From an uncultured Elusimicrobia bacterium (GTDB taxonomy: Bacteria > Elusimicrobiota > Elusimicrobia > UBA1565 > UBA9628), in NCBI GenBank assembly GCA_903830945.1, contig CAIKVT010000024.1, positions 11,804 to 75,803 of the forward strand: 64,000 nt of DNA, given 5' to 3'. Below are positions 10,199 through 53,158 of the stretch, one piece after another. How positions within the stretch are numbered: the first letter of the stretch is position 1; each line of letters begins with the position of its first letter. The notes beneath the pieces were generated by a model. It saw nothing but the letters and a program-made list of their open reading frames with translations, ran no database searches and was not told the DNA's origin. Made by a program: the position numbers and the translations under genes.

Positions 10199-12034
10199 AT
10201 GGACCTCGAGCTCCTGCGACGCACCTCGGTCTTTAACGCCCCGCCCACGGCCCTGCGCACCCATGGCTGCGGCGGACTCAATGCCGAGCACGCCGGAGAG
10301 ACCGTGCGGCTGGCCGGCTGGGTGAACTCCCGGCGCGATCACGGGGGAGTCTATTTCCTAGACCTGCGCGACCGCTCGGGCGTGGTCCAGGTCGTGGTCA
10401 ACCCCGAGGAAGTCGAAGCCTTCCTGGCCGCGGGCAAGCTCGGCAGCGAACACGTCATCGGCGTGGAGGGGACGGTCCGCTTGCGGCCGGAAGGCATGAA
10501 GAACCCCAAGCTCCCCACCGGCGAGGTCGAAGTCAAAGCCCAGGCTCTCAAGGTCCTCAACACATCCAAGACCCTGCCCTTCGAGGTGGACGAGCGCACC
10601 ACGGCTCTCGAAGAGACACGGCTCAAGTACCGATTCCTCGACCTGCGTCGCCCGCCCATGCTGGAGAGCCTGGTCCTGCGCCACCGCGTCAGCCAGGCCG
10701 TGCGCCGGGCCTTGGATGGCGAAGGCTTCCTGGAGATCGAGACCCCGATCTTGACCAAGGCCACTCCGGAGGGCGCCCGCGACTTCATCGTGCCTGCCCG
10801 TCTGAATCCCGGCAACTTCTACGCCCTGCCCCAGTCGCCCCAGATCTTCAAGCAGATCCTCATGGTGAGCGGAGTGGACCGCTATTTTCAGTTAGCGCGG
10901 GCCTTCCGCGACGAGGACCTGCGCTCGGACCGCCAGCCCGAGCACACGCAGATCGACCTCGAGATGTCCTTTGTCGATGAATCCGACGTGCATTCCCTGA
11001 CGGAGCGGATGCTCAAGACCGTATTCCTGGAGACCATGGGATCGGAACTCGAGACCCCGTTCCCCAGGCTCGAATACGCCGATGCCATGCAGCGCTACGG
11101 CTCAGACAAGCCGGACCTGCGCTACGGCCTTGCCATCGAGGACTGCACCGAGCTCTTCAAGGACTCGGGCTTCAAGGTCTTCGGCGAAGCCGCCCGCAAC
11201 GGCGGAGTGGTGCGCGCGCTCTCCGTGGCCCGCGAGTTCTCTCGGGCCGATATCGACAAGCTCACCGACCTGGTCAAGAAGGGCGGGGCCAAGGGCCTGG
11301 CCTGGCTCAAGTGGGACGGCTCGGCCTTCAGCGCGCCCATCGTCAAGTTCCTGGAGCCGGAAAAGCTTTCGGCCTTGAAGGAGCGCTTTCAACCAAAGCC
11401 CGGGCATCACCTGTTCTTCGCCGCGGACAAGGCGCCGGCCGCGGCCCTGTGCCTGGGCACCCTGCGCAAGGAGCTCATCACGCGCCTCAAGCTGCCACCG
11501 AGCCGGCCCTGGCATTTCTCCTGGGTGACGCGCTTCCCTCTGCTGGAGTGGGCGACCGAGGAGAACCGCTGGACATTCACCCACAATCCGTTCACCTCGC
11601 CCCTGGAAAGCGACCTGCCCAAGCTGGACAGCGACCCGGGCGCCGTCCTTTCGCACCAATACGATCTCGTCTTGAACGGGGTGGAGATCGCCTCCGGCTC
11701 GATGCGCAACCATCGCGCCGAGGTCCAGCGCAAGATCCTGTCGCTGATGGGATTCTCCACGGAGGCGCAGGAGGCGCAGTTCGGGCTCCTGCTCAACGCT
11801 CTCGATTTCGGCGCGCCGCCGCACGGCGGCGTCGCCCTGGGCCTCGATAGGCTGGTGGCGCTCATGCGGGGGGTCGACTCCATCCGCGAAGTCATCGCCT
11901 TCCCCAAGACGGCGAAGGGGACCTGCCTCTTGAGCGACGCGCCCGGTCCGGTGGACGCCAATCTCCTCAAAGAGCTGCACATCAAGCTCGACGTGCCGCC
12001 CACGATGCGCGCTCCGGATCAGACCGCGGCCTAA
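10199..12034 (+). CDS. aspS: Aspartate--tRNA ligase, probably non-discriminating
   Basis: RRDHGG and RPEG (His/Gly signature of ND-AspRS), FYALPQSPQ, FRDEDLR, GAPPHGG, GLDR. Confidence 0.97.
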   Translation: MDLELLRRTSVFNAPPTALRTHGCGGLNAEHAGETVRLAGWVNSRRDHGGVYFLDLRDRSGVVQVVVNPEEVEAFLAAGKLGSEHVIGVEGTVRLRPEGMKNPKLPTGEVEVKAQALKVLNTSKTLPFEVDERTTALEETRLKYRFLDLRRPPMLESLVLRHRVSQAVRRALDGEGFLEIETPILTKATPEGARDFIVPARLNPGNFYALPQSPQIFKQILMVSGVDRYFQLARAFRDEDLRSDRQPEHTQIDLEMSFVDESDVHSLTERMLKTVFLETMGSELETPFPRLEYADAMQRYGSDKPDLRYGLAIEDCTELFKDSGFKVFGEAARNGGVVRALSVAREFSRADIDKLTDLVKKGGAKGLAWLKWDGSAFSAPIVKFLEPEKLSALKERFQPKPGHHLFFAADKAPAAALCLGTLRKELITRLKLPPSRPWHFSWVTRFPLLEWATEENRWTFTHNPFTSPLESDLPKLDSDPGAVLSHQYDLVLNGVEIASGSMRNHRAEVQRKILSLMGFSTEAQEAQFGLLLNALDFGAPPHGGVALGLDRLVALMRGVDSIREVIAFPKTAKGTCLLSDAPGPVDANLLKELHIKLDVPPTMRAPDQTAA

Positions 12035-12038
12035 AGCC

Positions 12039-13463
12039 GTGGCTCGGCCAAAACGATCGGCCATCTGGCTACTATCGGCCCTGCTGGTCCTCGGTCTAGG
12101 CTGGCTGGCGATATGGGGCCGCCGACATCGTGTTCCCGTCGCCCTGAACACCAGCGCAATTCCTGAGGGCGTTCGGAACGCGGCTGCCAAACGCGCCCCC
12201 ATCCCGCCGGCTGGATCGGCGCTGGCCCCCGCAAGGCCGAATATCGCTGCCCGGCCGACGATCCCGCTGCACAAGGAACTCATCCCGAAAGACATCGAGA
12301 TCGTGCGCTGCTACTATGCCCAGACGGTCGTTGCGCCGGGCACGACTTTCGGCTTCGACATCAACGGCTCCGGCTTCACCGAGGAGTTCCAGAAAATGAT
12401 CAAGGTGGAGCTGGAGAACGCCCCTATCCGGGCCAAGAACCTGCGGCTGGTCACCGCCAACCAGATACACGGCGACATGGAAGTCGATTCCGACGCCCCG
12501 ACCGCGCTGGTCTATCCCCGCGTCCTCATCAAGGGTCTGCCGGTATTCACCGCCCCGGACCCTTTCGGGGTCGTGCGCAAAGGCGACGTCCTGACCATCA
12601 TCTTCACCGCCGAGTCGGAGAGCGGCAGCGCCGGCCGCTTCCAAGTCATCACCAATCTCGACGAGGGGCTCTTCCGAGAGTTCCGCATAGAGCCCAGCAC
12701 TCCCGGGCTGCGGATCGTCGATCTCGCGCCGCATCTGCCCTTCATCATCGAAGGGACGCTGCTCATGACGCAGTCCCTGGCGAGCGGCGGCTACGGCCTG
12801 GCGATCAAGATCGGCGCGCGGAAAGTTTTCCAGCGTGACGGCCTGATCCAGATCGTGCAGCCAAACGTGGGTCCCAGCGGCTTCGTGCAGGGGATCCGCG
12901 CGGAGGAGCCGTATCACCGCCCGGGAGACGACATCACGGTCTCCCTGGAGGGCGTCAGCTTGAGCCCCCGGGATGCCGAGCTGATCCAGGCCATCGTAGA
13001 CGGCTTCGACATGGGCCCAAGCTCCATCACCTACATCTCGGGAAACCGCTTGCGGGTGTCGTTCCACTGCCCCCGGACGGCTCCCGAGGGCTCCTACGGC
13101 GTGACGGCCAAGCGCGTCGACGGCCGGATGCTCTATCAGCGCCCGGACGTCTTTTGGATCGTGCCGCCGGACTGGATCGCCGGCGTGCAAGCCGCCTCGG
13201 CCTTGCAACCCGGCGCCAGAGGCGGCTTGCGCATTCTGGGACGGGATTTCTCCGCCGATTTTGAAAAGCTGCTCACGATTGCAGTCGATGAGCCGGGTAT
13301 CGGCATCTCAGGACTCCGGCGGCTCGACGACCGGTCCCTGGCGGCCGACATCTCCATCAGCTCGACAGTGTCCGCCGGGGACTACTGGCTGCACTTGAGC
13401 GCTCGCGGCCGGAAGATCGACCCACCCCACGGAAGCATCATCAAGGTCGAAAAAGAGCCTTAA
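12039..13463 (+). CDS. Membrane-anchored hypothetical protein with about four Ig-like (IPT/TIG-type) repeats
   Basis: N-terminal TM, Pro/Ala linker, repeated units with PG..G.(G/D)F and AP.G.Y motifs. Confidence 0.6.
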   Translation: MARPKRSAIWLLSALLVLGLGWLAIWGRRHRVPVALNTSAIPEGVRNAAAKRAPIPPAGSALAPARPNIAARPTIPLHKELIPKDIEIVRCYYAQTVVAPGTTFGFDINGSGFTEEFQKMIKVELENAPIRAKNLRLVTANQIHGDMEVDSDAPTALVYPRVLIKGLPVFTAPDPFGVVRKGDVLTIIFTAESESGSAGRFQVITNLDEGLFREFRIEPSTPGLRIVDLAPHLPFIIEGTLLMTQSLASGGYGLAIKIGARKVFQRDGLIQIVQPNVGPSGFVQGIRAEEPYHRPGDDITVSLEGVSLSPRDAELIQAIVDGFDMGPSSITYISGNRLRVSFHCPRTAPEGSYGVTAKRVDGRMLYQRPDVFWIVPPDWIAGVQAASALQPGARGGLRILGRDFSADFEKLLTIAVDEPGIGISGLRRLDDRSLAADISISSTVSAGDYWLHLSARGRKIDPPHGSIIKVEKEP

Positions 13464-13472
13464 GGACGACCC

Positions 13473-13499
13473 GCAGATCCGGCAGATCCGGCAGATTCG
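13473..13499. repeat. 9-bp tandem repeat (GCAGATCCG)x3
   Basis: gcagatccg gcagatccg gcagattcg at the left edge of the lower-GC island. Confidence 0.8.
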
Positions 13500-13557
13500 C
13501 TCCAAAGGAATTTTGGTATTATAATCCTTACTAGGCGTAGGACTTAGCTCCGGGGTA

Positions 13558-14862
13558 TTGCTTACGAAAACGACACTGCTACTGATCGCGGCCGCGGCGC
13601 TGCAGCTTGCCTGCAAAGCCGCAGCGCCTCCTCCCATCAAGGTCGGCGTCCTGCATTCCTTCTCCGGCGTCATGGCCGCCAGCGAGAAACCGGTCGCGGA
13701 CGCCGTCCTCCTAGCCGTGGAAGAGATCAACAAAAGCGGCGGGGTTCTGGGAAGACCGATCGAGCCTGTCGTGGCGGATGGCCGCTCCGATCCCAATGTT
13801 TTTCAGAAAGAAGCCGAGCGGCTCATCACGCAGGAGCATGTCGCGGTCATTTTCGGCTGTTGGACCTCGGCCAGCCGCAAGGCAGTCAAACCGATCGTTG
13901 AAAAATACAATTCACTCCTTTTTTATCCCGTCCAGAATGAAGGGCTGGAACAATCTCCGAACATCATCTATATCGGGGCGTCGCCCAATCAGCAGCTGAT
14001 CCCGGCCGTAGTCTGGGCCAAGGACCATCTGGGCAAGAGATTTTTCTTAGTCGGCTCTGATTATGTTTTTCCCAGAGCGGCCAACGCCATCGCCAAGGAC
14101 GTGCTGCGCTACACCGGAGGCCAAGTCGTAGGCGAATACTATGTTCCGCTGGACGGCAAGGATTTCACGAAGATAGCGGAAGCGATCAAAAAATCAAAAT
14201 CGGACGTAGTTTTAAACACCATCAACGGCGACAGCAATATCTATTTTTTTGAGGCTTTGCATGAAGCCAGACTCCCTTCATCGAAAATAGCGATATTCTC
14301 GCTGAGCCTGGATGAAAATGGGATCGACTCGATCCAGAAGCGCTTCCAGGCCCATCATCCCAAAGAAGCCGCGCATTTTTTCAAGGAGCATCTAGCAGGC
14401 ACTTTCGCCTGCTGGAACTATTTCGAAAGAATCGACAATCCGCTGAATGCGGCCTTCGTTGATAAATTTAAGAAAAAGTACGGCAGGAATTACAGGGTCA
14501 GCGATCCCGCAGAGGCCGCTTACATCGGGGTCAAGCTATGGAGCCAGTCCACCGCCGAATACGGAAGCATCGAGAATCCTGATGAGCTCCTGAACCATCT
14601 AACCCACCTCAGCCTGCCGGCTCCCGAAGGCGTGGTCACCATCGACAAGAACAACCATGCGCGCAGGACAATCCGGATCGGCAGGCTCAACGAGACGGGA
14701 AGTTTTGACATCCTCTGGACTTCCAAGTGGCCAATAACCGCCTCCCCGTATCCTATCTTCAGGACAACGGCCTATTGGAACGACTTACTCAACCGACTTT
14801 ATCAGGGATGGAACGGCCAATGGGCCGCGGCGGCGCAAGGCCGTTCCGGGGATGGACGATGA
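13558..14862 (+). CDS. UrtA/FmdD-like urea/amide ABC substrate-binding lipoprotein (orphan)
   Basis: LQLAC lipobox-like, IKVGVLHSFSG.MA.SE, FGCWTSASRKAV, LFYPVQNEGLE, GASPNQQ, VGSDYVFPR, NTINGDSN. TATAAT at 13520-13525. Confidence 0.88.
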   Translation: MLTKTTLLLIAAAALQLACKAAAPPPIKVGVLHSFSGVMAASEKPVADAVLLAVEEINKSGGVLGRPIEPVVADGRSDPNVFQKEAERLITQEHVAVIFGCWTSASRKAVKPIVEKYNSLLFYPVQNEGLEQSPNIIYIGASPNQQLIPAVVWAKDHLGKRFFLVGSDYVFPRAANAIAKDVLRYTGGQVVGEYYVPLDGKDFTKIAEAIKKSKSDVVLNTINGDSNIYFFEALHEARLPSSKIAIFSLSLDENGIDSIQKRFQAHHPKEAAHFFKEHLAGTFACWNYFERIDNPLNAAFVDKFKKKYGRNYRVSDPAEAAYIGVKLWSQSTAEYGSIENPDELLNHLTHLSLPAPEGVVTIDKNNHARRTIRIGRLNETGSFDILWTSKWPITASPYPIFRTTAYWNDLLNRLYQGWNGQWAAAAQGRSGDGR

Positions 14863-16892
14863 CGTCTATCTGGAGATCGCCGATTTTCCGGAGCCTGTTC
14901 GTGCGCTTTCTCTTGGCCGCGATCATGCCCCTGTTCACCCTAAACGCCATCACCGACCATCTTTTGTCCCGCTCTTTACAAACTCACATCCAGAACAAGC
15001 TCATCGCCATAAGCGACGCCAGGTCGGTCTTTATCGACGCGCAGTTGACCTCCATCGCGGAATTCACCACGGCAAGGGCCATGCTGCCGACGACCATCGC
15101 GGCTTTCAGGGAGTTCGACGCCGCCTTTAAGAAAGCAGGCATCCACAGCGAAGACTATCAGGCCCTCGATTCGCGATACCGGGATTATTTTCAGCAGTAT
15201 CTCGACATCCACGGCTACCTGCATGATCTGCTGTTCATCTCGCGGGCGGGAGACATCATCTTTACCGTTAAGCACGAAAATGATTTGGGAGAGAACATCC
15301 ACGGCGCCCTTCTAAAAAACACTTCCCTCTCTGATCTCGTCGACCAGGTCCAGCACACTTTCAGCGCGGAGATCTCGGATTTAAAATTCTATCCCCCTAC
15401 GCATGCCCCCGCCTTGTTCGTCGCCGCCCCTGTCTTCATCGATGAGAGTCTGTCCGGGACACTGGTCACGCAAGTGAAAAATGAGTTCCTTAATGATTTT
15501 TCCAGGGATTATTCAGGTCTGCCAAAAACAGGAGAGTTCACTTTCGCCGCACAGATCGGAAATAATCCGACTTATACCACGCCATCTCGATTGCAGCCCA
15601 CTGCGCCGTTGAGCCGTCAGGTCCATATCGGCGCACCTATCTCCCTGCCCTCGCAGGCGTGCCTGCGCGGAGAAAGCGGCATCGGGTTGACGCGGGATTA
15701 CAGAGGGGTAACCGTCCTGGCCAGATGGCAGCATATCCCGCGGCTGCGCTGGGGCATGGTCGTCAAGGCGGACGTTGATGAGCTTTTCGCCCCATTGAAA
15801 ATATTAAGAATAAGCATGTGGAGCATCTGCTTGCTCATGAGCGTGACCATCACCACAATCGCGCTGCGCGCGGCCAGGAGCATCGCCGAACCTATCAATG
15901 AATTGAAGCGGGGAATCAAGGCCGTGGGCCGCGGGAATCTTGATTACAGGACAAAGCTGCAATTGGACAATGAGCTAGGCGAGCTATCCATGGCTTTTGA
16001 CAAGATGACGGAGGACATACAAACTCAGATAAAAATCCGCATGGCTCTGGAAAAAGATATTGCCGAACGGATGCGGGTTGAAGAAATTTTGACGCTGCGG
16101 AACAAAGAGTCTAAGGAGACCGAGTCCGCCTTGATGAACATCCTTGAAGACCTCGACAAATCTCAATCGACCCTTCAAAAGAACAATATGACTCTTGTAT
16201 CATTGACGGAGAATCTGACAAGATCGAATCAAGAGCTTGAGGATTTCGCCTATATCGTCTCTCATGACTTAAAAGCGCCTTTGCGCGGCATCTCCTCGCT
16301 GTCCACATGGCTCGCGACCGACTATGCGGACAAACTAGACGACGAGGGCCGGCATCATTTACAGCTTTTGCAGCAGCGCGCGATCAAGATGGACCAGCTG
16401 ATCAACGGGATCCTGCAGTATTCCCAAGTGCAAAGGAAACAGGAAACTCACCTGTCCATGGACCTCGACGGCCTCCTCGACGAGGCGCTTGAGTTGGTGG
16501 CGCCGCCCCCGGGCATCCGGATCATCCGGACCAGCCAACTGCCGCGGGTCAGATGCTCACCGACCCGCATCCAGCAAGTCTTCCAAAACCTCGTGGACAA
16601 TGCCATAAAATACATGGGGAAGGAGACTGGGGAGATCAAGATCAGCTGCCTGGACAAAAATGACCATTGGCAATTTTGCGTGGAAGACAACGGCCAGGGC
16701 ATCGCCGAGAAGCATTTTGATAAAATATTCAAGATCTTCCACACCATCGAGACTCCCGGCCAGAAGCAGAGCACGGGCATCGGGCTGGCGTTGGTGCACA
16801 AAGTGGTCACGCTCCATGGAGGAAAGGTGTGGGTGGAATCGCAGTTGGGAGCCGGAAGCAAGTTCTTCTTCACGCTCCCGAAAACGGCGTAG
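14859..16892 (+). CDS. Membrane sensor histidine kinase (Cache-like periplasmic domain, HAMP, HisKA, HATPase)
   Basis: Two TM helices, HAMP (NELGELSMAFDKM), SHDLKAPL H-box, NLVDNAIK, DNGQGI, TGIGLA. ATGA overlap with the binding-protein gene. Confidence 0.93.
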   Translation: MTSIWRSPIFRSLFVRFLLAAIMPLFTLNAITDHLLSRSLQTHIQNKLIAISDARSVFIDAQLTSIAEFTTARAMLPTTIAAFREFDAAFKKAGIHSEDYQALDSRYRDYFQQYLDIHGYLHDLLFISRAGDIIFTVKHENDLGENIHGALLKNTSLSDLVDQVQHTFSAEISDLKFYPPTHAPALFVAAPVFIDESLSGTLVTQVKNEFLNDFSRDYSGLPKTGEFTFAAQIGNNPTYTTPSRLQPTAPLSRQVHIGAPISLPSQACLRGESGIGLTRDYRGVTVLARWQHIPRLRWGMVVKADVDELFAPLKILRISMWSICLLMSVTITTIALRAARSIAEPINELKRGIKAVGRGNLDYRTKLQLDNELGELSMAFDKMTEDIQTQIKIRMALEKDIAERMRVEEILTLRNKESKETESALMNILEDLDKSQSTLQKNNMTLVSLTENLTRSNQELEDFAYIVSHDLKAPLRGISSLSTWLATDYADKLDDEGRHHLQLLQQRAIKMDQLINGILQYSQVQRKQETHLSMDLDGLLDEALELVAPPPGIRIIRTSQLPRVRCSPTRIQQVFQNLVDNAIKYMGKETGEIKISCLDKNDHWQFCVEDNGQGIAEKHFDKIFKIFHTIETPGQKQSTGIGLALVHKVVTLHGGKVWVESQLGAGSKFFFTLPKTA

Positions 16893-16900
16893 GGACGAAC

Positions 16901-17785
16901 ATGCAGAATGAAACCGGTTTTGCCATCGGGAAGCTCCACGAAGCCCTCCTGGAGGCTTCGCTCGACGGGATACTCTTCGTCGCTGCCGACGGCCGCATCG
17001 TCACGTTCAACAAACGCTTCACGGACATGTGGGGCATCTCACCCGACTTGATACAGAGCCGCAGCGACCAGCGCGCCCTGGATTCGGTGCTCGCCAAATT
17101 GGCCGACCCCGACTCCTTCCTGCGGAAAGTCAAGGACCTGTATGCCAATGCCGTCGAAACAAGCCGCGACGAAATCCTATTGAAGGACGGCCGCGTCTTC
17201 GACCGCTACTCAGCGCCGGTCCCTGTCCCGGGCGGCACGACTGCCGGAAGGATATGGTTCTTCCGCGACATCACCGCGAGCAAGAGACTCGAGACGGAAC
17301 TAAAACGCGCTCTTACGGATTGGGATAGAACCTTTGACAGCATGCCGGATATGGTCTTCATCCAGGATATGGATTTCCGCATCATGAAATGCAACAAAGC
17401 CTTTGCCGACGCGGTGAAGATGAGACCCGAAGAAATCATCGGGAGAAAGTGCTACGAATTATTGCATAAACGTGATTCTCCCTGGCCGGAGTGCCCCTTT
17501 GAAAAAACCAGGAAAGACAGCCTGTGCCACACCCAAGAAGTGAATGACCCCGCCATCGGCCTGCCGCTGCTCGTCACCACTTCGCCCATGCTCGATGACC
17601 AGGGCAAGCTCATCGGCTCCGTGCACATTGCCAAGGATATCAGCGGAATAAAAAAAATCTACATGGATCTGGAGCAGAAAGTCCGCGACTTGCAACAATT
17701 CCAAAAGATCACGCTCGGCAGGGAAACAAAGATGATCGAACTAAAAAAAGAGATCGAGGAGCTTAAAAAAAAGACCGGACCTTGA
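16901..17785 (+). CDS. Tandem-PAS protein with a C-terminal coiled coil and no output domain
   Basis: Two PAS units (ending WFFRDIT and HIAKDIS), KCYELLH..CP, C-terminal GRETKMIELKKEIEEL. Confidence 0.85.
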   Translation: MQNETGFAIGKLHEALLEASLDGILFVAADGRIVTFNKRFTDMWGISPDLIQSRSDQRALDSVLAKLADPDSFLRKVKDLYANAVETSRDEILLKDGRVFDRYSAPVPVPGGTTAGRIWFFRDITASKRLETELKRALTDWDRTFDSMPDMVFIQDMDFRIMKCNKAFADAVKMRPEEIIGRKCYELLHKRDSPWPECPFEKTRKDSLCHTQEVNDPAIGLPLLVTTSPMLDDQGKLIGSVHIAKDISGIKKIYMDLEQKVRDLQQFQKITLGRETKMIELKKEIEELKKKTGP

Positions 17786-17812
17786 GAATCCAAAAAGACA
17801 AAGGGGGAATAG

Positions 17813-18220
17813 ATGACTACAACTCACACAATCCTGCTGGTTGACGACGACGAGGTGGACATCATGGCGGTAAGCCGCGCCCTCAAAGAGCTCAACGTGA
17901 CAAACCCGGTCGCCGTCTGCCGCAACGGCAAGGAAGCTCTGCAATGGCTCAAGACCCATCCCAAGCCCGGGCTGGTCCTTCTGGATCTGAGGATGCCCGT
18001 GATGGACGGCTTGGAATTTTTGGCCAATGCTAAAAACGACCTGAACCTCAAGACAATCCCGGTCGTAGCGCTGACGACCTCGAAGGAGGAATCGGACCGG
18101 ATCCAGGCGTTTAATCTGGGGATCGCCGGCTTCATGGTCAAACCCGTGGACCCCAAGCTCTACCTCTCGGTCATAAAGACCATTTCGATCTATTGGCATA
18201 CGAGCGAACTGCCGTATTAA
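17813..18220 (+). CDS. Single-domain response regulator (Rcp1-like)
   Basis: ILLVDDD, LLDLRMP.MDG, LTTS, KP, ending YW...ELP. Confidence 0.92.
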   Translation: MTTTHTILLVDDDEVDIMAVSRALKELNVTNPVAVCRNGKEALQWLKTHPKPGLVLLDLRMPVMDGLEFLANAKNDLNLKTIPVVALTTSKEESDRIQAFNLGIAGFMVKPVDPKLYLSVIKTISIYWHTSELPY

Positions 18221-18249
18221 AAGAGGACAGCAGCCGTAGGGAGCCTATC

Positions 18250-19395
18250 ATGCAACCGAACGCCGCGCCGGAAAAGAATCCCACAAACCGGATCAATGTA
18301 TTGCTCCTCGAAGACGACGAGGTGGACGCGAAATGGGTGCAGCGCGCGCTGAAGGATTCACCGACATTCCGCTTGACCTCCGTCGGCACCGTGGCCGCAG
18401 CGCTCGAATGCCTAAAATCGAGGGACTTTGACGTTATCCTCAGCGACTTGCACCTCCCGGACGGCTCCGGATTGGATATTTTCAACGCTTTGATAAAACA
18501 AAGCCCACAAGCCCCGGTGGTCTTGCTGACCGGAAGCATCCTGAACGAACATCACGCCATGGAAGCCATCCACCAAGGCGCCCAAGACTATCTGATCAAA
18601 GGACAGGTGGATCAACGCGCCCTGATCCAGGCCTTGAATTACGCCATGGAAAGAAACAAACTTATGCTGATGCGGGATCATTTCGTCCACGTCGTCAGCC
18701 ATGAATTGAAGAACCCGCTCAACGCCCTGCAGCTCTCCATCACCATGGTCAAAGACGGCATAATCGTGGATGCCAAAGAGAAGAAGGAAGCCCTCCAAGT
18801 CGCCCTCAACTCCATCGGCCGACTCGTCAGGACGACCCAGACTCTTTTGGATCTGGCCAGCATGGAATCGCGCAAATATTCTTTTCAGCAAGCGAATTTC
18901 AGCCTCAATGCGCTGATCGAAGAGATGAAGCAATTGTTCCACCGAGAGATCGAGGGCAAGGGCCTGTCTTTAAAGACGATCGTGCCTGATCGTGATGTCG
19001 AGATATTCGCGGACCGCGATCAGCTCGCGCGGGTTTTTACGAACCTCATCCACAACGCGCTGAAATTCACCCAAAAAGGGCAGATCAGCATCCGCGCGGA
19101 TGACCAGGAGGATAGCATCCGCTGCAGCGTGGCCGACACCGGGACAGGGATCGCGCCGGAAGATATACCGAAGCTTTTTCGGAGATTCAGCCGAACGGGA
19201 AAAACGAACACCACGCAGGGGACGGGCCTGGGCCTCTCCATTTGCAGGGAGATCCTGGAGGCGCATCAGGGAAGGATCTGGGCGGAAAGCGCACCCGGCG
19301 CAGGGGCGTGCTTTATCTTCACGATCCCCAAAGCCGCGACGCCGGCCGCTGTCCCCGCGGCCTCGGAAGGATCCACACATGCCCGACCAGCATAA
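18250..19395 (+). CDS. Hybrid receiver-histidine kinase
   Basis: N-terminal REC (LLEDD, SDLHLPD, GAQDYLIK), SHELKNPL, NALKF, DTGTGI, GTGLGL. Confidence 0.92.
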   Translation: MQPNAAPEKNPTNRINVLLLEDDEVDAKWVQRALKDSPTFRLTSVGTVAAALECLKSRDFDVILSDLHLPDGSGLDIFNALIKQSPQAPVVLLTGSILNEHHAMEAIHQGAQDYLIKGQVDQRALIQALNYAMERNKLMLMRDHFVHVVSHELKNPLNALQLSITMVKDGIIVDAKEKKEALQVALNSIGRLVRTTQTLLDLASMESRKYSFQQANFSLNALIEEMKQLFHREIEGKGLSLKTIVPDRDVEIFADRDQLARVFTNLIHNALKFTQKGQISIRADDQEDSIRCSVADTGTGIAPEDIPKLFRRFSRTGKTNTTQGTGLGLSICREILEAHQGRIWAESAPGAGACFIFTIPKAATPAAVPAASEGSTHARPA

Positions 19396-21643
19396 GTTTA
19401 TAGACGAATGGCTTCTGCGCGCCGTCCAGGACCTCCCCGGGGTGACTCCCACAGTCGTGGCTGCCGCTCGTTCGACCGGAGAACGATATCTGGCCCAAGC
19501 CCTCATAGCCGCCGGCCTGGCTACCCGCGAATCCGTAGCTCGGGCGCTCCAATCCGCCTATCACATAGCCTGGATAGACCTCGAGGCCGCCGCCGTCGAA
19601 AGGACCGCTCTTCCCTTTATTCCTGAAAAACTCTGCCGCCAGCATACCGTCATCCCCGTTTCCGCGGACAACACGGAGATCATCGTCGCCATGGCCAATC
19701 CCCTCGACCAGGATGCCTGGGCGGACATTCAGGCCGCCGCCGGACGCCGGCCGGTCCCGCAGTACTGTGTTCGGGACCGCATCGAGCGCCTGATCACCGA
19801 ATTCTACTCCCCGGACGCCATCATCAGCGACCTGCTGGATCAGTTCCAAGATGACCAGGCGACCGTTGAGATCCTAGAGGGAATGGATCCCGCGGCCGTG
19901 GAGAGCAACGCCAAGGATATCCGGGCGCCCGTCATCCGCCTGGTCAATACCATCATCGTCAAGGCCGTCAAGATGCTGGCCTCGGATATCCACATCGAAC
20001 ATGAAGAGCGCAACAGCGCGGTCCGATTCCGGATCGATGGAGTCCTGTGCCATATCATGACCCTGCCCAAGTCTATCGCGGCCACGGCCGTGGTCGCGCG
20101 CATCAAGATCATGGCGGACCTTGACATCGCCGACCACCGCACTCCCCAGGACGGCCGGGCCAAGCTGCGCGTCGGCGCCGCGGACATCGGGCTGCGGGTC
20201 TCGACCTTGCCCACGAGCTTCGGCGAGAAAGTCGTCATGCGCATCCTGGACAAGCGTTCCGCGGAGGTCCCTTTCGACCAGCTGGGCTTCAAGCCGGAGC
20301 TGGCCGCCAAGGTACAGGCGCTTCTGCAGACAGACAGGGGCATCTTCCTGGTCACCGGGCCCACCGGCTCCGGGAAAACCACGACCCTCTACTCGATCAT
20401 CAACAACCTGCGCTCCGAGGGCACCAACATCGTCACGGTGGAAGACCCCATCGAATACAAGCTCATCGGCATTAATCAGGTGCAGGTCCACGAGAAGGCG
20501 GGGCTCACTTTCGCAAGCGTGCTGCGCTCGGTCCTGCGTCAAGACCCGGACATCATACTGGTCGGGGAGATCCGCGACCGTGAGACCGCGGACATCGCTT
20601 GTCAAGCGGCCCTCACCGGCCACCTGGTCCTGAGCACCCTGCACACCAACGACACCCTTTCAACGATCACGAGGCTCGCGGACATCGGCTTAGAGCGCTT
20701 CAAGATCGCGCCTGGGCTCATCGCCATCACCGCGCAGAGGCTTGTCCGGAAACTCTGCCCCGCTTGCCGCGTGCCGGACCGGAGACCACACCATCCGAAA
20801 GCGAGCGAGCTCCTCAGGAGTCAAGGGCTAACCGACACCTATTTTGCGCCCAAAGGCTGCGCAGCCTGCGGAAATTCCGGTTTCAAAGGACGGATCGCTA
20901 TCCTAGAACTCCTTACGGTGGATGCCGCGCTCAAGGATTTAATCACCTCCGGAGCCGGGGATGCCGCCCTGCGCCAGGCCGCGCTGACCTCGGGATCCCT
21001 CTATCCCTTAGCCGCGGATGCGGCATGGCACCTCTTTAACGGGGACGTATCGTTCGATGAGATATTGCCTTATCTTTCCCTTCCAGAAGTCCAGCCCGCC
21101 GCATCTGCCGTAATCGACCAGGATTTTCCAGCGGCGCCCGCAGCCCTCCCCACCCCGCCGACTCCGATAAAGGTCAAGCCGCGCATCCTAGTGGCCGATG
21201 ACGAGAACGGCCTGCGCATGCTCACCCGCAAGGTCCTCGAATCGAACGGCTGTGAAGTGGAAGAGGCCGCGGACGGCCAGGAAGCCATGGCGCGTCTCAA
21301 GTCGCAGACCCCGGACCTGCTGCTCCTGGACCTCCACATGCCCCGTCTTGACGGCTATGGCGTCCTACGCGCGCTGCGCCAGACTATCGGTCTGACCGGG
21401 CTGCCGGTCATCATTTTATCGAGCATGTCCAACGCGAGCAGCCAGGAAGAAGCCTTTACTTGCGGGGCTGACGATTACATCATCAAGCCTTTCGATCCGG
21501 TCCTGCTGATGGCCCGCATCCATGCCGTCCTGCGACGCCAAGAACTGACCGCGCCCCAGATTGCTGCGAGGTCTAAAGTGGTGGACGTGACAGGGATCGA
21601 ACCTGCGACCTCTTCCTTGCGAAGGAAGCGCTCTCCCAGCTGA
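19379..21643 (+). CDS. PilB/GspE-family assembly ATPase fused to a C-terminal receiver domain
   Basis: Degenerate MshEN-like N-terminus, ASDIHIE, GPTGSGKT, VEDPIEY, LRQDPD..GEIRD, TGHLVLSTLHTND, CPAC/CAAC Zn motif, then REC (ILVADD, LLDLHMP, DDYIIKPF). Confidence 0.92.
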   Translation: MPDQHKFIDEWLLRAVQDLPGVTPTVVAAARSTGERYLAQALIAAGLATRESVARALQSAYHIAWIDLEAAAVERTALPFIPEKLCRQHTVIPVSADNTEIIVAMANPLDQDAWADIQAAAGRRPVPQYCVRDRIERLITEFYSPDAIISDLLDQFQDDQATVEILEGMDPAAVESNAKDIRAPVIRLVNTIIVKAVKMLASDIHIEHEERNSAVRFRIDGVLCHIMTLPKSIAATAVVARIKIMADLDIADHRTPQDGRAKLRVGAADIGLRVSTLPTSFGEKVVMRILDKRSAEVPFDQLGFKPELAAKVQALLQTDRGIFLVTGPTGSGKTTTLYSIINNLRSEGTNIVTVEDPIEYKLIGINQVQVHEKAGLTFASVLRSVLRQDPDIILVGEIRDRETADIACQAALTGHLVLSTLHTNDTLSTITRLADIGLERFKIAPGLIAITAQRLVRKLCPACRVPDRRPHHPKASELLRSQGLTDTYFAPKGCAACGNSGFKGRIAILELLTVDAALKDLITSGAGDAALRQAALTSGSLYPLAADAAWHLFNGDVSFDEILPYLSLPEVQPAASAVIDQDFPAAPAALPTPPTPIKVKPRILVADDENGLRMLTRKVLESNGCEVEEAADGQEAMARLKSQTPDLLLLDLHMPRLDGYGVLRALRQTIGLTGLPVIILSSMSNASSQEEAFTCGADDYIIKPFDPVLLMARIHAVLRRQELTAPQIAARSKVVDVTGIEPATSSLRRKRSPS

Positions 21644-21654
21644 GCTACACGCCC
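21579..21654 (-). tRNA. tRNA-Ala (anticodon CGC), CCA encoded
   Basis: Reverse complement GGGCGTGTAGCTCAGCTGGGAGAGCGCTTCCTT-CGC-AAGGAAGAGGTCGCAGGTTCGATCCCTGTCACGTCCACCA; 76 nt; G3:U70 Ala identity pair. Confidence 0.97.
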
Positions 21655-27830: not shown

Positions 27831-29105
27831 TTGAGTCGCTCGCAGCGGCCCGTCATTGAGCTCATCTGCGTCGGCACCGAGCTCCTCGACGGCCATGCCG
27901 ATTCGCATCGCGCCGCGCTGGCCCTGCGCCTGGGCGCGGCGGGCCTGCGCCTCTCCCGCGAGGCCATCCTACTCGACGATGCCGACGCCCTGGCCGGCGT
28001 GGTGCGCGCGGCGCTGCGGCGCTGCGACGCGCTGATCGTGTGCGGAGGACTCGGCCCGACCTTCGATGACCTGACCCGCGAGGCCGTGGCCCGAGCCCTA
28101 GGCCGCGACCTCGTCTTCTCGCCCCGACTCTACGCCGACATCCGCCGCAAGTTCGCCCGATGGGGGACGAGGCGACCCCGGGAGAACCGGCGCCAGGCCT
28201 TCCTCGTGCGCGGAGCCGCGGCACTGGCCAACCGAGTCGGCTCGGCCCCCGGACAGATCATCGTCCTACCGCGTCCCAATGATTCGCCGCAGACCGTGGC
28301 GTTGCTGCCAGGCCCGCCCCGCGAGATGGTCCCCTTGCTGGAATCCGAGGTCATGCCGCGCCTGCGGCGGGCCTACGGGCGTGGGCTGCACGCCGCGACC
28401 CTCGACCTCCACCTCTGCGGCCTGCCCGAATCCGCCGCGGACGAACGCCTCAAGCCCCTCACGAGACAGGCCGGGCCCGAGCTCGATTTCACCATCCTCG
28501 CCCACCCCGGCCAAGTGGATTTTCACGCCTTCGCGCGCTGCGCCAGCGCGCGCCGGGCGCGCGAACTCATCGCGCGCTGCAGGCGCCAAGCCTTGCGCCT
28601 GCTCGCCGGCCACGTCGTAGGCGATGGCTCCATGACCCTGGAATCTGCCGTGGGCAGACTCCTGCGACGCCGCCGGTTGACCTTGGCCGCGGCAGAATCA
28701 TGCACCGCGGGACTGCTCTGTGGCCGCCTGACCTCGGTGCCCGGAAGTTCCTCCTATTTCCGGGGCGGAGTCTTGGCCTATCACGACGCGGTCAAGCGCG
28801 GCCTACTCGGCGTCAAAGCCGAGACCTTGGCCCGACCAGGCGCGGTCTCGGCCGCCTGCGCCCGGGAAATGGCGGAGCGCGCCCGCCGCCTCATCGGCGC
28901 AGACGTCGGTGTCTCGATCACGGGCCTCGCCGGCCCCGGAGGAGGCACCGCCCGCAAGCCCGCAGGACTGGTTTTCACCGCCGTCGCCGGGCCGGGCGCC
29001 ATGGTCGCGGTGCGCCGCTGGCAATTCCCAGGAGACCGGGAGGCCGTACGACAGAAGGCCGTGGCTGCGGCCCTGTGCCTGCTCTGGACCAGACTGCGCC
29101 CATGA
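27831..29105 (+). CDS. cinA: CinA-family protein (molybdopterin-binding-like domain plus NMN deamidase PncC domain)
   Basis: VGTELL.G, GGLGPTFDDLT, GSAPG, LPGPP.EM, AESCTAG, SITGLAGPGG. TTG start with SD AAGGTGAGG. Confidence 0.92.
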   Translation: MSRSQRPVIELICVGTELLDGHADSHRAALALRLGAAGLRLSREAILLDDADALAGVVRAALRRCDALIVCGGLGPTFDDLTREAVARALGRDLVFSPRLYADIRRKFARWGTRRPRENRRQAFLVRGAAALANRVGSAPGQIIVLPRPNDSPQTVALLPGPPREMVPLLESEVMPRLRRAYGRGLHAATLDLHLCGLPESAADERLKPLTRQAGPELDFTILAHPGQVDFHAFARCASARRARELIARCRRQALRLLAGHVVGDGSMTLESAVGRLLRRRRLTLAAAESCTAGLLCGRLTSVPGSSSYFRGGVLAYHDAVKRGLLGVKAETLARPGAVSAACAREMAERARRLIGADVGVSITGLAGPGGGTARKPAGLVFTAVAGPGAMVAVRRWQFPGDREAVRQKAVAAALCLLWTRLRP

Positions 29106-31504
29106 AAACCAAACCCAAGGCGAAGAAGTCCTCCGCAAATCCGTCAGGACGGCGTCGCATCCGCGCCGCCGCAACCCCGACGTTGGAGACTTTCGAATCG
29201 TTCATCTCGCAAGCGCCGCTCATCATCTTCGGCCTCGACGCGCAAGGGCGCTTCACTTTCTCCACGGGCCGCGGGCTCGTCGCACTGGGCCTGTCGCCTG
29301 GTGAAGTGATCGGTCGCTCGGCCCTGGAGATGTACCAGAAGGCGCCCGACGTGCTGGCGGACCTGCGCCGGGCCCTGAAAGGGGAGGACTTCTCATCAGT
29401 AGTGCCGGTCGGCCAGCTCTGGTTCGAGACCTTCTACCGCCCCGTCTTCAACGCGGCCGGCAAGCTCAAGGCGGTCATGGGCCTAGCCCTGGATGTCACG
29501 GCGCGCCAGCGCTCAGGAAAGAAAGCGGCAGAAGAAGTACGCGCCTCACAGGAGATGCTGAGACTCGTCCTGGACAACATCCCCCAGCGGGTCTTCTGGA
29601 AGGACCGGCGCTCGGTCTACGTCGGCTGCAACAAGGCTTTCGCCAGGGACACCGGCTACAACGACCCCAAAGAACTCATCGGCAAGGATGATTTCTCGAT
29701 GGCTTCGGCCGCCACCGCCGACCGAGATCGCGCCGAGGACTCACAGGTGATGGAGACGGGCCTGCCCAAACTCAATTTCGAAGAGCCTCACATCCGCCAG
29801 GACGGCAGCCAGAGAGTCCTGCGGACCCACAAGATCCCGCTGCGCGACAAAGACGGCCAAGTGATCGGCGTGCTGGGCACCTACGACGACATCACGGAGC
29901 TTAAGAACGCGGAGCGCGCCCTGCGCCTGATGCATTTCGCCATGGAGCACGCCACGGATGCGGTCTTGTGGGCCGGCGAGGGCGCCCGCATCCGCTACGC
30001 CAATCCCGCCGCTTGCCGCCATCTGGGCTACAGCGGGGAGGAGCTGCTCAAGCTGACTATGCCGGACATCGATCCGGATATCTCGCTGGAACAATGGCAG
30101 GCACAGTGGCAGAGACTGCAAAAAGAAGGCTCCCTCCATTTGGAGTCCCGGCATCGCGCCAAGGACGGCCGCCTCATGCCCGTGGAGATAACCATCAACC
30201 ACATCCGGTTCGAGGGCGAGGAGATCGACGTCTCCTATAGCCGCGACATCTCCGAACGCAAGCGCGCCGATGTGGAGCGCGCCCGCCTGCTCGAATTAGA
30301 GCAGACGGGCCGCGTCAACGCCGAGACCGCCAGTCGGGCCAAGGACGAGTTCCTGGCCATCGTATCCCACGAGCTGCGCACGCCCATGACCGCGATCCTG
30401 GGCTGGACCTGGTTGCTGCGCTCGGAAGACCTGAGCCCGCGCGAGCGCCAGCACGCCCTGGAAGTCATCGAGCACAACATGCAGCTCCAGAAGCAGATCA
30501 TCGAGGATCTCCTCGACATCTCCAGCCTGGTGCGCAAACGACTGACCCTGCACAAGCAGATCGTGGACCTCGGCGGAATCGTGACGGAAGCGGCGTCCGG
30601 ATGCCAAGCCACAGCCCAGGCAAAGTCCCTGCGCTTGGTCTGCGAGCCGCAGATGGGGCTCTCAGTCGACGCCGACCCACAGAGGCTGCGGCAGATCTTC
30701 TGGAACCTCATCTCCAACGCCGTCAAGTTCACCCCGAAAGATGGAACGGTGACGGTGCTGCTCCGCCAGGAGGCGCAACAGGCTCTGGTCTCGATCGAGG
30801 ACATGGGCCCCGGCATCAACCCGGATTTCTATCCCTACCTCTTTAAATTATTCCGGCAGCAGGAGGAATCCCTGACCCGGATGCATCGGGGCCTAGGGCT
30901 GGGGCTGGCCATCACTAAGCATCTGGTCGAACTCCACGGCGGGACGATTTCAGTCGAGCCGCCCGCTCCGGGTCGCGGATCGAAATTCTCCGTCACCCTG
31001 CCGCTAGCCGTACCGCAAGGCGAGAGTGCCGCCGCTCTCGCGAGTGCGGCGGAGGCCGCGCTCGATTTTCCCCGGCTCCTACATGGCGTGCGCATCCTGG
31101 TCGTAGACGACGACCAAGAAACCCTCGACATGCTGATCTCGGCGCTGTCCCACTGCGGCGCCAAGGCCCGGGGCGCCGCCACAGCCGCGGAGGGCTTCGC
31201 GCTCTTCACACAGGACCAGCCCGACGTGCTCATCTCCGACATCGCCATGCCCGACGAAGACGGCTATAGCCTGATCCGCCGCATCCGAGCCCTGAGACCC
31301 GACCAAGGAGGACAGGTCCCGGCCGCGGCCTTGACGGCCTATGCCTCCTCCGAGGACCGCACCAAAGCCCTGCGCGCCGGGTTCCATATATACCTCCCCA
31401 AGCCGGTGGATCCGGCCGAGCTGATCACGGTCGTGCACACCTTGACAAAAATCCCCGGCACCTCGGCCAAACCGCGCCGCGGCAAACCCGACCGGGACAC
31501 TTGA
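29102..31504 (+). CDS. Cytoplasmic hybrid kinase (3x PAS-HisKA-HATPase-REC)
   Basis: Three PAS/PAC units, AKDEFLAIVSHELRTPM, NAVKFT, GLGLGLAI, ILVVDD, SDIAMP, KP. ATGA overlap with cinA. Confidence 0.93.
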   Translation: MKTKPKAKKSSANPSGRRRIRAAATPTLETFESFISQAPLIIFGLDAQGRFTFSTGRGLVALGLSPGEVIGRSALEMYQKAPDVLADLRRALKGEDFSSVVPVGQLWFETFYRPVFNAAGKLKAVMGLALDVTARQRSGKKAAEEVRASQEMLRLVLDNIPQRVFWKDRRSVYVGCNKAFARDTGYNDPKELIGKDDFSMASAATADRDRAEDSQVMETGLPKLNFEEPHIRQDGSQRVLRTHKIPLRDKDGQVIGVLGTYDDITELKNAERALRLMHFAMEHATDAVLWAGEGARIRYANPAACRHLGYSGEELLKLTMPDIDPDISLEQWQAQWQRLQKEGSLHLESRHRAKDGRLMPVEITINHIRFEGEEIDVSYSRDISERKRADVERARLLELEQTGRVNAETASRAKDEFLAIVSHELRTPMTAILGWTWLLRSEDLSPRERQHALEVIEHNMQLQKQIIEDLLDISSLVRKRLTLHKQIVDLGGIVTEAASGCQATAQAKSLRLVCEPQMGLSVDADPQRLRQIFWNLISNAVKFTPKDGTVTVLLRQEAQQALVSIEDMGPGINPDFYPYLFKLFRQQEESLTRMHRGLGLGLAITKHLVELHGGTISVEPPAPGRGSKFSVTLPLAVPQGESAAALASAAEAALDFPRLLHGVRILVVDDDQETLDMLISALSHCGAKARGAATAAEGFALFTQDQPDVLISDIAMPDEDGYSLIRRIRALRPDQGGQVPAAALTAYASSEDRTKALRAGFHIYLPKPVDPAELITVVHTLTKIPGTSAKPRRGKPDRDT

Positions 31505-43129: not shown

Positions 43130-45379
43130 CTAAGGGTACCCCCGCCAACGCCGAGCCGCCCATTCGCAGAGCAGCAGAGCCAAGGCCGCAGCCAGCCACA
43201 AGGGCGAGGCCCAAGGACGACGACGCCGGGTGATCTCTGACTGGCGCCGGAGGGGGGAGAGCTTCTCCAGCAAGGCTGCGGCGTCGCAAGCGGAGAGTTC
43301 GGTGAAGGTCCCGCCCGTGGCCTCGGCCACGCTGCGCAGCCACTTGCGGTCCATGGGGGCCTCGGGCGGCGCCTTGGCCCAATCAAAGCGAACCTCGTCT
43401 TCGCCCCAAGCTTTTCCCTGATAGCGCGCCGAAGCCTTGAGCCTGTGCGCGCCCGGCAAGAGCCCCGTCAACTCCACGGCATAGGTCCCCGGCCCGGTCT
43501 CCCGAGGCAGGACCTGGCGCGACTTGCCGTCCGGGCCCGTCCAGACGACCGTGATCTCGGTGGCGACCGCGGCCGCGGGAGCAAAACCCTCGTCAAAGAC
43601 TCGCAGAGCGACCACGGCCGGCTCCCGTGAGGGCAGGCGATCCGGCAGCGGCGCGAACTTGACCTTGGAAAGCTCCAGGCTGCCGGTCAGGTACTGCACG
43701 GCCCGGGTCCAGAACCGGCCATAAAATCCCGCGGTCCTCCAATCCAGGGCGCCGCCCAAGCGCCAGCGCCAGGTGGAATCCGAACTGACCAGCATGACCT
43801 TGCCGCGTCCATAGTCGCGGATCGCGAACAGCGGCGCCGGCTCACCAGACTCCATACGCGCCTGGGGATGCGCGGCCAGCACCGTGGCCCCCGGCCGCGC
43901 GGCGACGAACTGTCCGTAGCCGTCGAGCTCCGGAAGAGCCTCCCAGGCCGCGCGGGACTGCTCGGGAGTATCGTAAAGCTGCACGAGCGGATGGTTCAGC
44001 GCCACGGGCTTGGCCCGGAACAGGCCGCCGATGAAATCCGGGACCCGGTTGGAAAGCTTGACCGGCAGGACCTCCTCCAGAGGCGTGCCGCGATAGCCGC
44101 CAAGACTGAAGGCATTCTCGCCGCCGATGACCAGCAGGGCACCGCCTTCGGCCACGAAGTTCCTAAGCGATTCAAGGTAGACCAGGGGAATCTGGCCGCG
44201 AAAGCGCTCGTAGGAGAAATTCTCCAGGATAAAAAGGTCGAACTGGCCGATGGTCTGGACGAAGATCTCCGAGGCCGGGAAAGGGATCAGCGAAAGCTCA
44301 TTGTCGGCCACGAGCGTGGGATTCTCGGGATTGCGCAGGATGACGAAGGAGACCAGCTCGTGATTGGGATCAGCCTTGAGGAACTCGCGCAGGTTCGCGT
44401 ACTCGGGACTGGGACGGCCGGCGAGGTACATGATCCGGTACTTCTGCCGGATGACCTCCATCCGGAAGTCACGACGAGCTTGGGCCGGAGCAACCCGGGC
44501 CTCCACGCGGTAGCTCTCGGAGCCCAAAGACTCGGCGGTGGCCGTGAATGTGGCGACCGTCGTCTCAAGGTCCGAGCGCAGCCGGAACTCCCGATGCTCC
44601 ACCGTCTCCCAGCGCTCCCGGTCCGTCCGGCTCCTCTTGAGGAGGTCGAGTCCCAAGACCCGCCCACCCAGGTCCGAGGCCTCGACTGCGGCCTCTACGC
44701 TGACGCGGCCGTGCAGGAATGCGAAATCCGGGGTCTTAAGATCCACGAAAGAGACGCCGCGCTCCCGCTGGGCGGGGCCCACGCCCACGACGTCCACCGG
44801 CATGCGCAGCTCGGCTAAAGCTCGCTCGAGCTCCGGGTCCGACTCGGCGTTGCCGTCGCTGAAGAGCCAGGCCCGCTCCGGCCGCGACGGCTCAGCGCCG
44901 AGGGCAGGTCCTTGGTCGTCCATGACGTCGCGCAGAGCCGACGCCGGCCGCAGGCTGGCCGCCGAGACGGACAGGCCGGCCAGCTCGCTCCAGCCCGCCA
45001 GCCTGCGGCCGCGGTCGCAGAGCGCGTAGAACTGCGGCTCACAGCGCGCCTCCAGCGACCGGCGCCGGCTCTGCAGCCAGTCCAGGGCCGCCCGCAGGCG
45101 GCTGACCGAGCGCAGAAGCCCGCCGTTGCGTGAAGGCGCGGCCATCGGATGGCCGTCGTCGATGAGGACCAGCAGCCGCGGCTTGAAACTCTGCGGCTCG
45201 CTGATGGCCACGGTCGGCTGCAACGCCGCCAGAGCCAAGGCCGCGGCGGCCAGGACCCGCAGCGCCAGCAAGCCGCCGCGCGCCGGCGTACGGCGGCCAT
45301 GCCAGAACACCGCGCCGGCCAGAACCAGCGCCGCCAGGGCTGCCGACCAACCGCCGCCCCACTCCAAGGAGAAGCTCAA
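43130..45379 (-). CDS. MoxR-associated membrane protein with degenerate vWA and GATase1-like domains
   Basis: LVLIDD, FSDGN, SFVILR, LSLIPFP, GGALLVIGG, TWRW, C-terminal EWAARRWRG. Confidence 0.82.
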   Translation of the reverse strand: MSFSLEWGGGWSAALAALVLAGAVFWHGRRTPARGGLLALRVLAAAALALAALQPTVAISEPQSFKPRLLVLIDDGHPMAAPSRNGGLLRSVSRLRAALDWLQSRRRSLEARCEPQFYALCDRGRRLAGWSELAGLSVSAASLRPASALRDVMDDQGPALGAEPSRPERAWLFSDGNAESDPELERALAELRMPVDVVGVGPAQRERGVSFVDLKTPDFAFLHGRVSVEAAVEASDLGGRVLGLDLLKRSRTDRERWETVEHREFRLRSDLETTVATFTATAESLGSESYRVEARVAPAQARRDFRMEVIRQKYRIMYLAGRPSPEYANLREFLKADPNHELVSFVILRNPENPTLVADNELSLIPFPASEIFVQTIGQFDLFILENFSYERFRGQIPLVYLESLRNFVAEGGALLVIGGENAFSLGGYRGTPLEEVLPVKLSNRVPDFIGGLFRAKPVALNHPLVQLYDTPEQSRAAWEALPELDGYGQFVAARPGATVLAAHPQARMESGEPAPLFAIRDYGRGKVMLVSSDSTWRWRLGGALDWRTAGFYGRFWTRAVQYLTGSLELSKVKFAPLPDRLPSREPAVVALRVFDEGFAPAAAVATEITVVWTGPDGKSRQVLPRETGPGTYAVELTGLLPGAHRLKASARYQGKAWGEDEVRFDWAKAPPEAPMDRKWLRSVAEATGGTFTELSACDAAALLEKLSPLRRQSEITRRRRPWASPLWLAAALALLLCEWAARRWRGYP

Positions 45380-53123: not shown

Positions 53124-53158
53124 CCGGTGACAGTCTTGGACTGTCTTAACTTCGCAGG

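Follow-up and report, generated by a model that had tools for sequence, protein, structure and literature searches.

Why would a transporter-less binding protein of the urea type share a run of genes with two sensor kinases and a pilus-type ATPase that carries its own receiver? The question is raised by six genes at positions 13558-21643 (+ strand) of a stretch of 64,000 nt from contig CAIKVT010000024.1, assembled from an uncultured Elusimicrobia bacterium (GCA_903830945.1). This whole stretch is called the window below. A preliminary description of the six genes had presented them as a candidate new system that would relay a small-amide signal post-translationally to a pilus motor. From the genomes compared, the cluster is best described as a strain-specific joining of a recurrent input cassette and a recurrent output pair, and not as a conserved unit. 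The element common to the cassette and the pair is a kinase with an N-terminal receiver, the REC-kinase. As judged from the sequences, the best explanation for the joined genes was a multi-step two-component cascade, in which the output would be the ATPase and not a transcription factor, with urea as the putative input and an orphan PilB-like motor as the putative end point. This explanation is put forward tentatively, with a confidence slightly short of even.

A cluster from binding protein to ATPase

All six open reading frames (ORFs) carried the domains previously read from the sequence, as confirmed with Pfam, and the tight packing on the + strand was borne out by the five junctions, at each of which the genes either overlapped or lay no more than 29 nt apart. 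The first gene (13558..14862) starts with TTG and encodes a UrtA-like periplasmic binding protein of 434 aa with a signal peptide and Cys19. Kinase 1 (14859..16892) is a membrane sensor kinase comprising a transmembrane helix, a dCache-like periplasmic domain at about residues 34-315, a second transmembrane helix, HAMP, a coiled coil, HisKA and HATPase_c. Its likely start, 14859, overlaps the stop of the binding protein as ATGA. A stand-alone PAS-PAS protein with a C-terminal coiled coil (16901..17785, likely start 16901) and a single-domain receiver of 135 aa (17813..18220) follow. The REC-kinase has the layout REC-HisKA-HATPase_c and comprises 381 aa from its likely ATG (18250..19395). The last gene encodes a MshEN-T2SSE ATPase of 754 aa with a Pro/Ala-rich linker and a C-terminal REC domain (19379..21643). 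An earlier start for this ORF, 19100, was rejected: its first 93 codons coincide with the end of the kinase gene, read in a different frame, and the homologues start at 19379. The ATG at 19379 was taken as the most likely start because the homologues begin at the same residues and the database holds a 754-aa form. With this start, the stop of the REC-kinase and the start of the ATPase overlap by 17 nt, suggesting co-translation. The overlap and the intact REC domain of the ATPase had both been noted before and were retained; the REC domain occupies residues 696-807 of the 847-aa ORF that starts at 19100. No DNA-binding domain was detected by Pfam in the six proteins, and no permease, ABC ATPase, urease, pilus or secretion gene was found in the window. 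The two absences claimed at the outset, of a DNA-binding regulator and of urease and transporter genes nearby, were thus upheld.

Signalling residues were intact throughout. Both kinases matched HisKA and HATPase_c and an H-box was read in each, that of kinase 1 being of the SHDLKAPL type; kinase 1 also matched HAMP. The match of its sensor region to dCache_1 (PF02743) was weak, with 23.6 bits against a cut-off of 45. Full-length homologues reached 55.5 and 57.7 bits and aligned with kinase 1 along the whole sensor region. All three REC domains matched PF00072 and kept the acid pocket, the acceptor Asp, the Thr/Ser and the Lys; in the single receiver, these were intact as acid pocket, Asp, Thr and Lys. 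The PAS-PAS protein showed two PAS stretches and no output domain. Its second PAS (window 17400-17560) contains a Cys/His-rich stretch, C..LLH....PW.ECP......C.H, which might bind a metal or cofactor. Between HAMP and H-box (window 15960-16110), the coiled coil of kinase 1 is about 50 residues longer than that of its orthologue on contig C55 of the closest relative, genome G002 of the same genus.

In the proposed cascade, the binding protein would dock on the dCache-like domain of kinase 1 and set the activity of this kinase. Phosphate from kinase 1 would then reach the single receiver, the receiver domain of the REC-kinase or both. The REC-kinase would phosphorylate the C-terminal receiver of the ATPase, and this receiver may, via its flexible linker, alter the activity of the hexamer or its docking on a shared platform, of a pilus or a secretion machine, whose genes lie elsewhere. 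The PAS-PAS protein would add a second, cytoplasmic input.

The binding protein matched Peripla_BP_5 with an E-value of 1.3e-133 (Pfam). Its best relatives of solved structure were 8tg1 (E 2.7e-110), the three UrtA structures 8HIC, 7S6E and 7S6F (E 2.4e-81 to 1.2e-77) and AmiC 1PEA (E 1.8e-58). For UrtA of Prochlorococcus marinus, an excerpt of PMC10392092 names Trp120, Ser122, Tyr141, Gln144, Glu146, Tyr190, Asn246 and Ser274 as urea contacts. Counting along the alignment to 8hic_A (offset 23) placed W, S, Y, Q, E, Y, N and S at these eight positions, so that all eight of the contacts named there are kept. The small-amide signal of the preliminary description was thereby narrowed to urea, which is our best guess for the ligand. 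The genome, which is 99.3% complete, was searched for genes of urea uptake and use. The best UrtB candidate scored 123.5 bits against a cut-off of 250.3, urease alpha and formamidase FmdA/AmdA were not found in the genome, and no urea carboxylase was above cut-off. No second strong Peripla_BP_5 protein was found in it. With no urease found, urea would be a cue rather than a nutrient. The view of the binding protein as a candidate receptor without a transporter was therefore strengthened by the genome-wide search. Its assignment to the UrtA-like proteins stood as well, and its designation as a lipoprotein was reduced to a possibility: the signal peptide has a Cys, and the lipobox is non-canonical with Q at -3.

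The ATPase matched the T2SSE core (PF00437) with an E-value of 1.1e-129 and MshEN with 58.3 bits (Pfam). All core motifs were kept, namely Walker A/B, Asp box, His box and tetracysteine. Among eight aligned ATPases with a fused receiver (ATPase-REC), D608, D651 and K703 of the REC domain, Walker A, the Asp box, the His box and the four Cys were invariant. The MshEN motif for cyclic di-GMP (c-di-GMP) is given in an excerpt of PMC12943098 as two 24-residue copies of RLGxxL(L/V/I)xxG(L/V/I/F)(L/V/I)xxxxLxxxLxxQ. Relative to the motif in this form, the domain was degenerate, and the best copy, identified by eye, lacked the R, the first G and the final Q. Control of the ATPase by c-di-GMP through MshEN was rejected on this basis, which leaves the REC domain as the obvious regulatory input. 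This REC domain resembles receivers of the OmpR/PhoB type. From this likeness, one could imagine that receivers of adjacent subunits pair on phosphorylation and so tune the hexamer; this is speculation by analogy.

Recurrence of the input cassette and the output pair

ATPase-REC proteins were found to be a large family. The genome itself encodes two further full-length paralogues with 59% and 53% identity, and whole-length matches were present in 10 of 40 relatives. A representative library of 1.84 billion proteins was searched, and the best 150 matches, which are cluster representatives at 50% identity, were classified by layout. The ATPase was followed by REC in 113 of these. One had three C-terminal RECs, one had a REC on both sides and four had REC before the ATPase. 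The remainder were 17 with the ATPase only and 14 with a split ATPase match and no detected REC. In the plasmid collection, none of the 845 matching records covered 80% or more of the ATPase-REC protein and no REC fusion was seen. In a tree of ATPase cores, 11 proteins with C-terminal REC grouped together with moderate support (80/90), with the window copy as sister to the own-genome paralogue on contig C1. Five canonical PilB/GspE-like proteins were placed apart (93/90).

The gene contexts of 13 ATPase-REC loci were compared; two were on contigs that were too short, leaving 11 informative loci, and a kinase was adjacent in eight of the 11. A REC-kinase was directly upstream in the window, at two loci of G014 (C47 and C25) and in G031. 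A hybrid kinase was upstream in G018 and a divergent hybrid kinase was present in G039. The ATPase-REC on contig C31 of G002 was adjacent to a CheB-CheR-PAS kinase with a LuxR regulator, and that on contig C81 of the own genome was followed by a HATPase_c protein. In G029, a convergent REC-kinase near the ATPase-REC was detected by tblastn only. In the genomes compared, co-occurrence was thus seen for the kinase and the ATPase-REC, and not for the six genes as a set.

The input side recurred independently. The three closest relatives of the binding protein that were found, with 76% identity on contig C55 of G002, 66% on contig C72 of G002 and 50% in a metagenome-assembled genome (MAG) of Parachlamydiaceae, directly precede a dCache sensor protein. 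The cassette on G002:C55 consists of the binding protein, dCache-HAMP kinase, REC and REC-kinase with 76%, 53%, 81% and 72% identity, respectively; the PAS-PAS protein is absent. The GC content of this cassette was 0.56-0.60, in comparison with 0.68-0.70 in its flanks. Two genes upstream of it, a protein of 1078 aa (L200 14278-17514, - strand) showed three REC matches, Hpt, MshEN and T2SSE. This protein combines a phosphorelay and an ATPase in one chain and is very divergent, with a long branch in the tree. On G002:C72 (L199 10620-13389, - strand), a P-II-like gene, the binding protein and a kinase-less dCache protein lie together. The dCache protein ends just past the second membrane helix, and three of the eight urea residues of the binding protein are changed.

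The sensor domain was matched in 29 of 401 phylum genomes, the own genome included (E <= 1e-6), with two strong copies in G002 at 48%. Four genomes from other families of the phylum (G155, G075, G205 and G085) had the order of dCache-kinase, REC and REC-(GAF)-kinase with no binding protein. The own contig C55 (1756-3992) has a paralogous set of the same gene order, from kinase through single REC to REC-kinase. On the own contig C79 (8372-9507), a kinase is followed by a single REC.

Larger collections were scanned with patterns of exact short peptides. The figures given for these scans are the matches listed, and closer relatives may be missed by such patterns. In the genome collections, the best 80 loci were kept, with binding-protein identities of 50% (the Parachlamydiaceae MAG), 45%, 42% and 41%. 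Only L022, the locus of the 50% relative, had a following dCache-HAMP kinase that was homologous over the sensor region among these 80. Sampled relatives of the binding protein at or below 45% identity occurred with ABC transporter genes, with AmiR or alone. The idea that the binding protein pairs with a sensor protein was thus borne out for its three closest relatives and not for these more distant ones. In the metagenome collections, at least 447 relatives of the binding protein were recovered, with a best full-length identity of 39% among the matches listed. In none of the best 80 loci kept was a homologue of the sensor domain encoded next to the binding protein. A metagenome scan based on an alignment of two sensor domains gave 343 pattern matches, none of which was confirmed.

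The joining site at tRNA-Ala

The cluster lies between the gene for aspartyl-tRNA synthetase (AspRS) and a tRNA-Ala(CGC) gene (21579..21654, - strand), which is antisense to the tail of the ATPase ORF. The proteins flanking this site were 87-90% identical in G002. The DNA homology to G002 ended at 12001, at the end of AspRS, and restarted at 21561 just before the tRNA, and only 1.37 kb separated AspRS and tRNA in that genome. The six genes and a 474-aa ORF (12039..13463, + strand) were therefore assigned to a strain-specific variable segment of about 9.5 kb (12002..21560) with the tRNA gene at its right edge. GC content was in line with this assignment, with 0.49-0.57 over 13500-19000, 0.61-0.63 over the ATPase and about 0.65 in the flanks. 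The 474-aa ORF had no Pfam or NCBIfam match, and tblastn (E <= 1e-10) gave no hit to it in the same-genus loci that were compared, among them the G002 site. The ATPase ORF extends 28 codons beyond the end of all seven aligned homologues, antisense into tRNA-Ala. This tail comes after about 21556, and the right junction of the segment sits where the native ATPase stop would be. Features of a genomic island were observed in the absence from a close relative, the deviant composition and the position beside a tRNA gene. Domain searches of the window proteins found no integrase domain, and an att-like direct repeat of the tRNA end was not found.

Between the 474-aa ORF and the binding protein gene lies an AT-rich gap of 94 nt (13464..13557, + strand). 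It contains TATAAT at 13520-13525, by reading of the sequence, and is a possible promoter region; the consensus scan found no full promoter within it. Promoter-like sites were not above background, nor were terminator-like sites (13 against 9.7 +/- 3.1 expected). On the other side of the tRNA, a receiver gene precedes MltG in at least four genomes of the same genus, G002, G001, G004 and G006 (L102, on G002:C14, 1776-2899, and L103-L105), with a kinase ahead in three. In the window, this position is taken by a FecR-like gene and PriA, so that within the genus there is variation on either side of the tRNA-Ala/MltG site. The rest of the window encodes housekeeping functions, including mur/dcw, SurE, AspRS, MltG, PriA, Gmk, PNPase and FtsK. 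A PAS-PAS-HisKA-HATPase-REC hybrid kinase at 28700-31504 (+ strand) is unrelated to the cluster, and a BatA/VWA/DUF58/MoxR cluster at 43130-55290 is unrelated to the six genes.

Alternatives, known systems and significance

Several observations weigh against the cascade as proposed. The full six-gene set was found only here: it occurred in none of the 40 relatives or the 401-genome phylum samples (its own genome counted among them), and the pattern scans with the binding protein also missed it among the matches listed from the genome and metagenome collections. The idea of a dedicated six-gene system was abandoned on this account in favour of a mosaic of recurrent modules. On the input side, the binding protein scored 413.8 bits with the UrtA model TIGR03407, below the cut-off of 492.75. 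It also carries an insertion of 15 residues (about residues 259-275, window 14330-14380) that is absent from the solved and the transporter-type relatives. The insertion is common to the two G002 relatives and partial in the Parachlamydiaceae relative, and it may provide the surface contacted by the kinase. Some decay is possible, as the ATPase bears a foreign tail of 28 aa and the PAS-PAS protein may be what is left of a longer sensor. On the output side, the ATPase reached 529.3 bits with PilB TIGR02538 (cut-off 675.65) and 541.5 with GspE TIGR02533 (cut-off 630.25), and was also below the TfpB cut-off. At two ATPase-REC paralogues of the own genome and at two loci of relatives, a kinase was either not adjacent or lay only at a distance. 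No pilus, secretion, platform, pilin or secretin gene was found beside any of the 11 informative ATPase-REC loci, and the role of a pilus motor, as first proposed, is unproven. The genome encodes seven ATPases of the PilB/GspE class, three platform genes and three secretins, all platform genes (C58, C60 and C29) and secretins being on other contigs.

The mosaic structure allows a first alternative, in which an acquired sensor cassette and the ATPase-REC came together by chance and work in separate pathways. The urea input would then feed another response regulator, and the ATPase-REC would be served by a different kinase or by the REC-kinase only. The GC content of the sensor part, near 0.54 in comparison with about 0.62 for the ATPase, agrees with such an origin, as does the G002:C55 cassette, where genes for an EF-hand protein and a glycyl-radical enzyme come next after that for the REC-kinase and no ATPase lies directly downstream. 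REC-HisKA-HATPase proteins are also frequent, with matches in 131 of 401 genomes at E <= 1e-40, and the genome contains many orphan kinases and receivers. However, the 17-nt overlap of REC-kinase and ATPase suggests that the two are co-translated, and the arrangement of a REC-kinase immediately before an ATPase-REC is seen again at both G014 loci and in G031. Moreover, a different REC-bearing T2SSE ATPase, the 1078-aa protein, is encoded two genes upstream of the G002 cassette, and the cascade in G155 abuts pilM/N-pilB. A chance assembly was considered unlikely.

A second alternative leaves the cascade intact and questions its end. The ATPase-REC may not be a pilus or secretion motor and could act as a phosphate sink for the cascade, or as a signal-gated ATPase with another client. 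The lack of platform, pilin and secretin genes at the 11 loci and the scores below the PilB and GspE cut-offs are in favour of this, together with the moderately supported grouping of the 11 C-terminal-REC ATPases apart from the canonical ones. Yet every catalytic and zinc motif of the extension ATPases is kept, the T2SSE match is strong and the best NCBIfam matches were all GspE, PilB and TfpB. In Acinetobacter baylyi, TfpB is reportedly a second, accessory extension motor on one pilus machine. A function other than that of a pilus or secretion motor is unlikely, at about the same level as a chance assembly.

Considerably less probable is a role of the binding protein mainly in transport, in the service of a Liv-type ABC importer with genes elsewhere; the kinase would then be a co-sensor only. 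Two branched-chain-type permease pairs are present in the genome, on contigs C8 and C40, and more distant members of the family are transporter components. However, both permease loci have binding-protein genes of their own and fall short of the UrtB cut-off. The genome searches also found no enzyme to use an imported substrate, be it urease, formamidase or urea carboxylase, and the three closest relatives found pair with sensor proteins and not with permeases. Finally, a recent insertion of decaying cargo, partly on its way to loss, would account for the read-through tail in place of the native ATPase stop, the PAS-PAS protein lacking an output domain and a counterpart in the G002 cassette, and the absence of the segment from the closest relative, but it is very improbable, as all six frames are open with their key residues intact and the tail comes after a complete REC domain.

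The cascade from binding protein to ATPase thus remained the best explanation, and its components resemble known systems in part. The binding protein is like UrtA of the UrtABCDE importer in its Peripla_BP_5 fold family and in the eight urea residues listed in the excerpt; it differs in the lack of a UrtBCDE partner, the score below the UrtA cut-off and the insertion. Like the acetamide sensor AmiC, it would be a sensor and not a transport component, but AmiC is cytoplasmic and coupled to AmiR, whereas the protein described here has a signal peptide and a membrane kinase. Binding-protein-dependent sensor kinases are known from LuxP/LuxQ, TorT/TorS and ChvE/VirA. As in these, the binding-protein gene lies beside a kinase gene, with probable co-translation of the two; the kinase has a putative periplasmic domain of the PAS/Cache type, and there is no dedicated transporter. 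The binding-protein family and the presumed ligand urea are different, and the pairing described here is a prediction from gene order.

The order of kinase, single receiver and REC-kinase is familiar from Cph1/Rcp1-type phytochrome operons, which encode such cascades, and the H-box of kinase 1 is of the same SHDLKAPL type. The input in the present cluster is a pair of dCache-like domain and binding protein instead of a phytochrome, and the end point is an ATPase. This ATPase shares the T2SSE core, Walker A/B, Asp and His boxes, tetracysteine and the N-terminal MshEN/GSPII domain with PilB, GspE and MshE. It departs from them in the receiver fused in cis at the C-terminus, in the c-di-GMP motif, degenerate by the excerpted form, and in the position of its gene away from pilus and secretion genes. 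Known control of pilus extension ATPases is by c-di-GMP or by separate motor-binding proteins; in Synechocystis, PATAN-REC response regulators reportedly bind PilB1. In the literature outside subscription journals, no description was found of a receiver fused to PilB or GspE, or of a urea-type binding protein paired with a kinase.

The observation of the cluster is real, and its reading as a post-translational pathway is plausible. Of most interest are the ATPase-REC family, which is large and uncharacterised, and the urea-type receptor/kinase pair. A broader generalisation could be made, although we lean against it at present: ATPase-REC fusions may constitute a large class of response regulators with a filament or secretion motor as output and with kinases usually encoded alongside, and the member described here may be switched by urea, independently of transcription, through a transporter-less UrtA-type receptor on a dCache kinase. 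With the receiver built into the motor, a two-component signal would reach filament assembly or secretion by the shortest route possible. If true, the pairing of a urea-type binding protein with a kinase would add a new ligand class to the binding-protein-dependent kinases.

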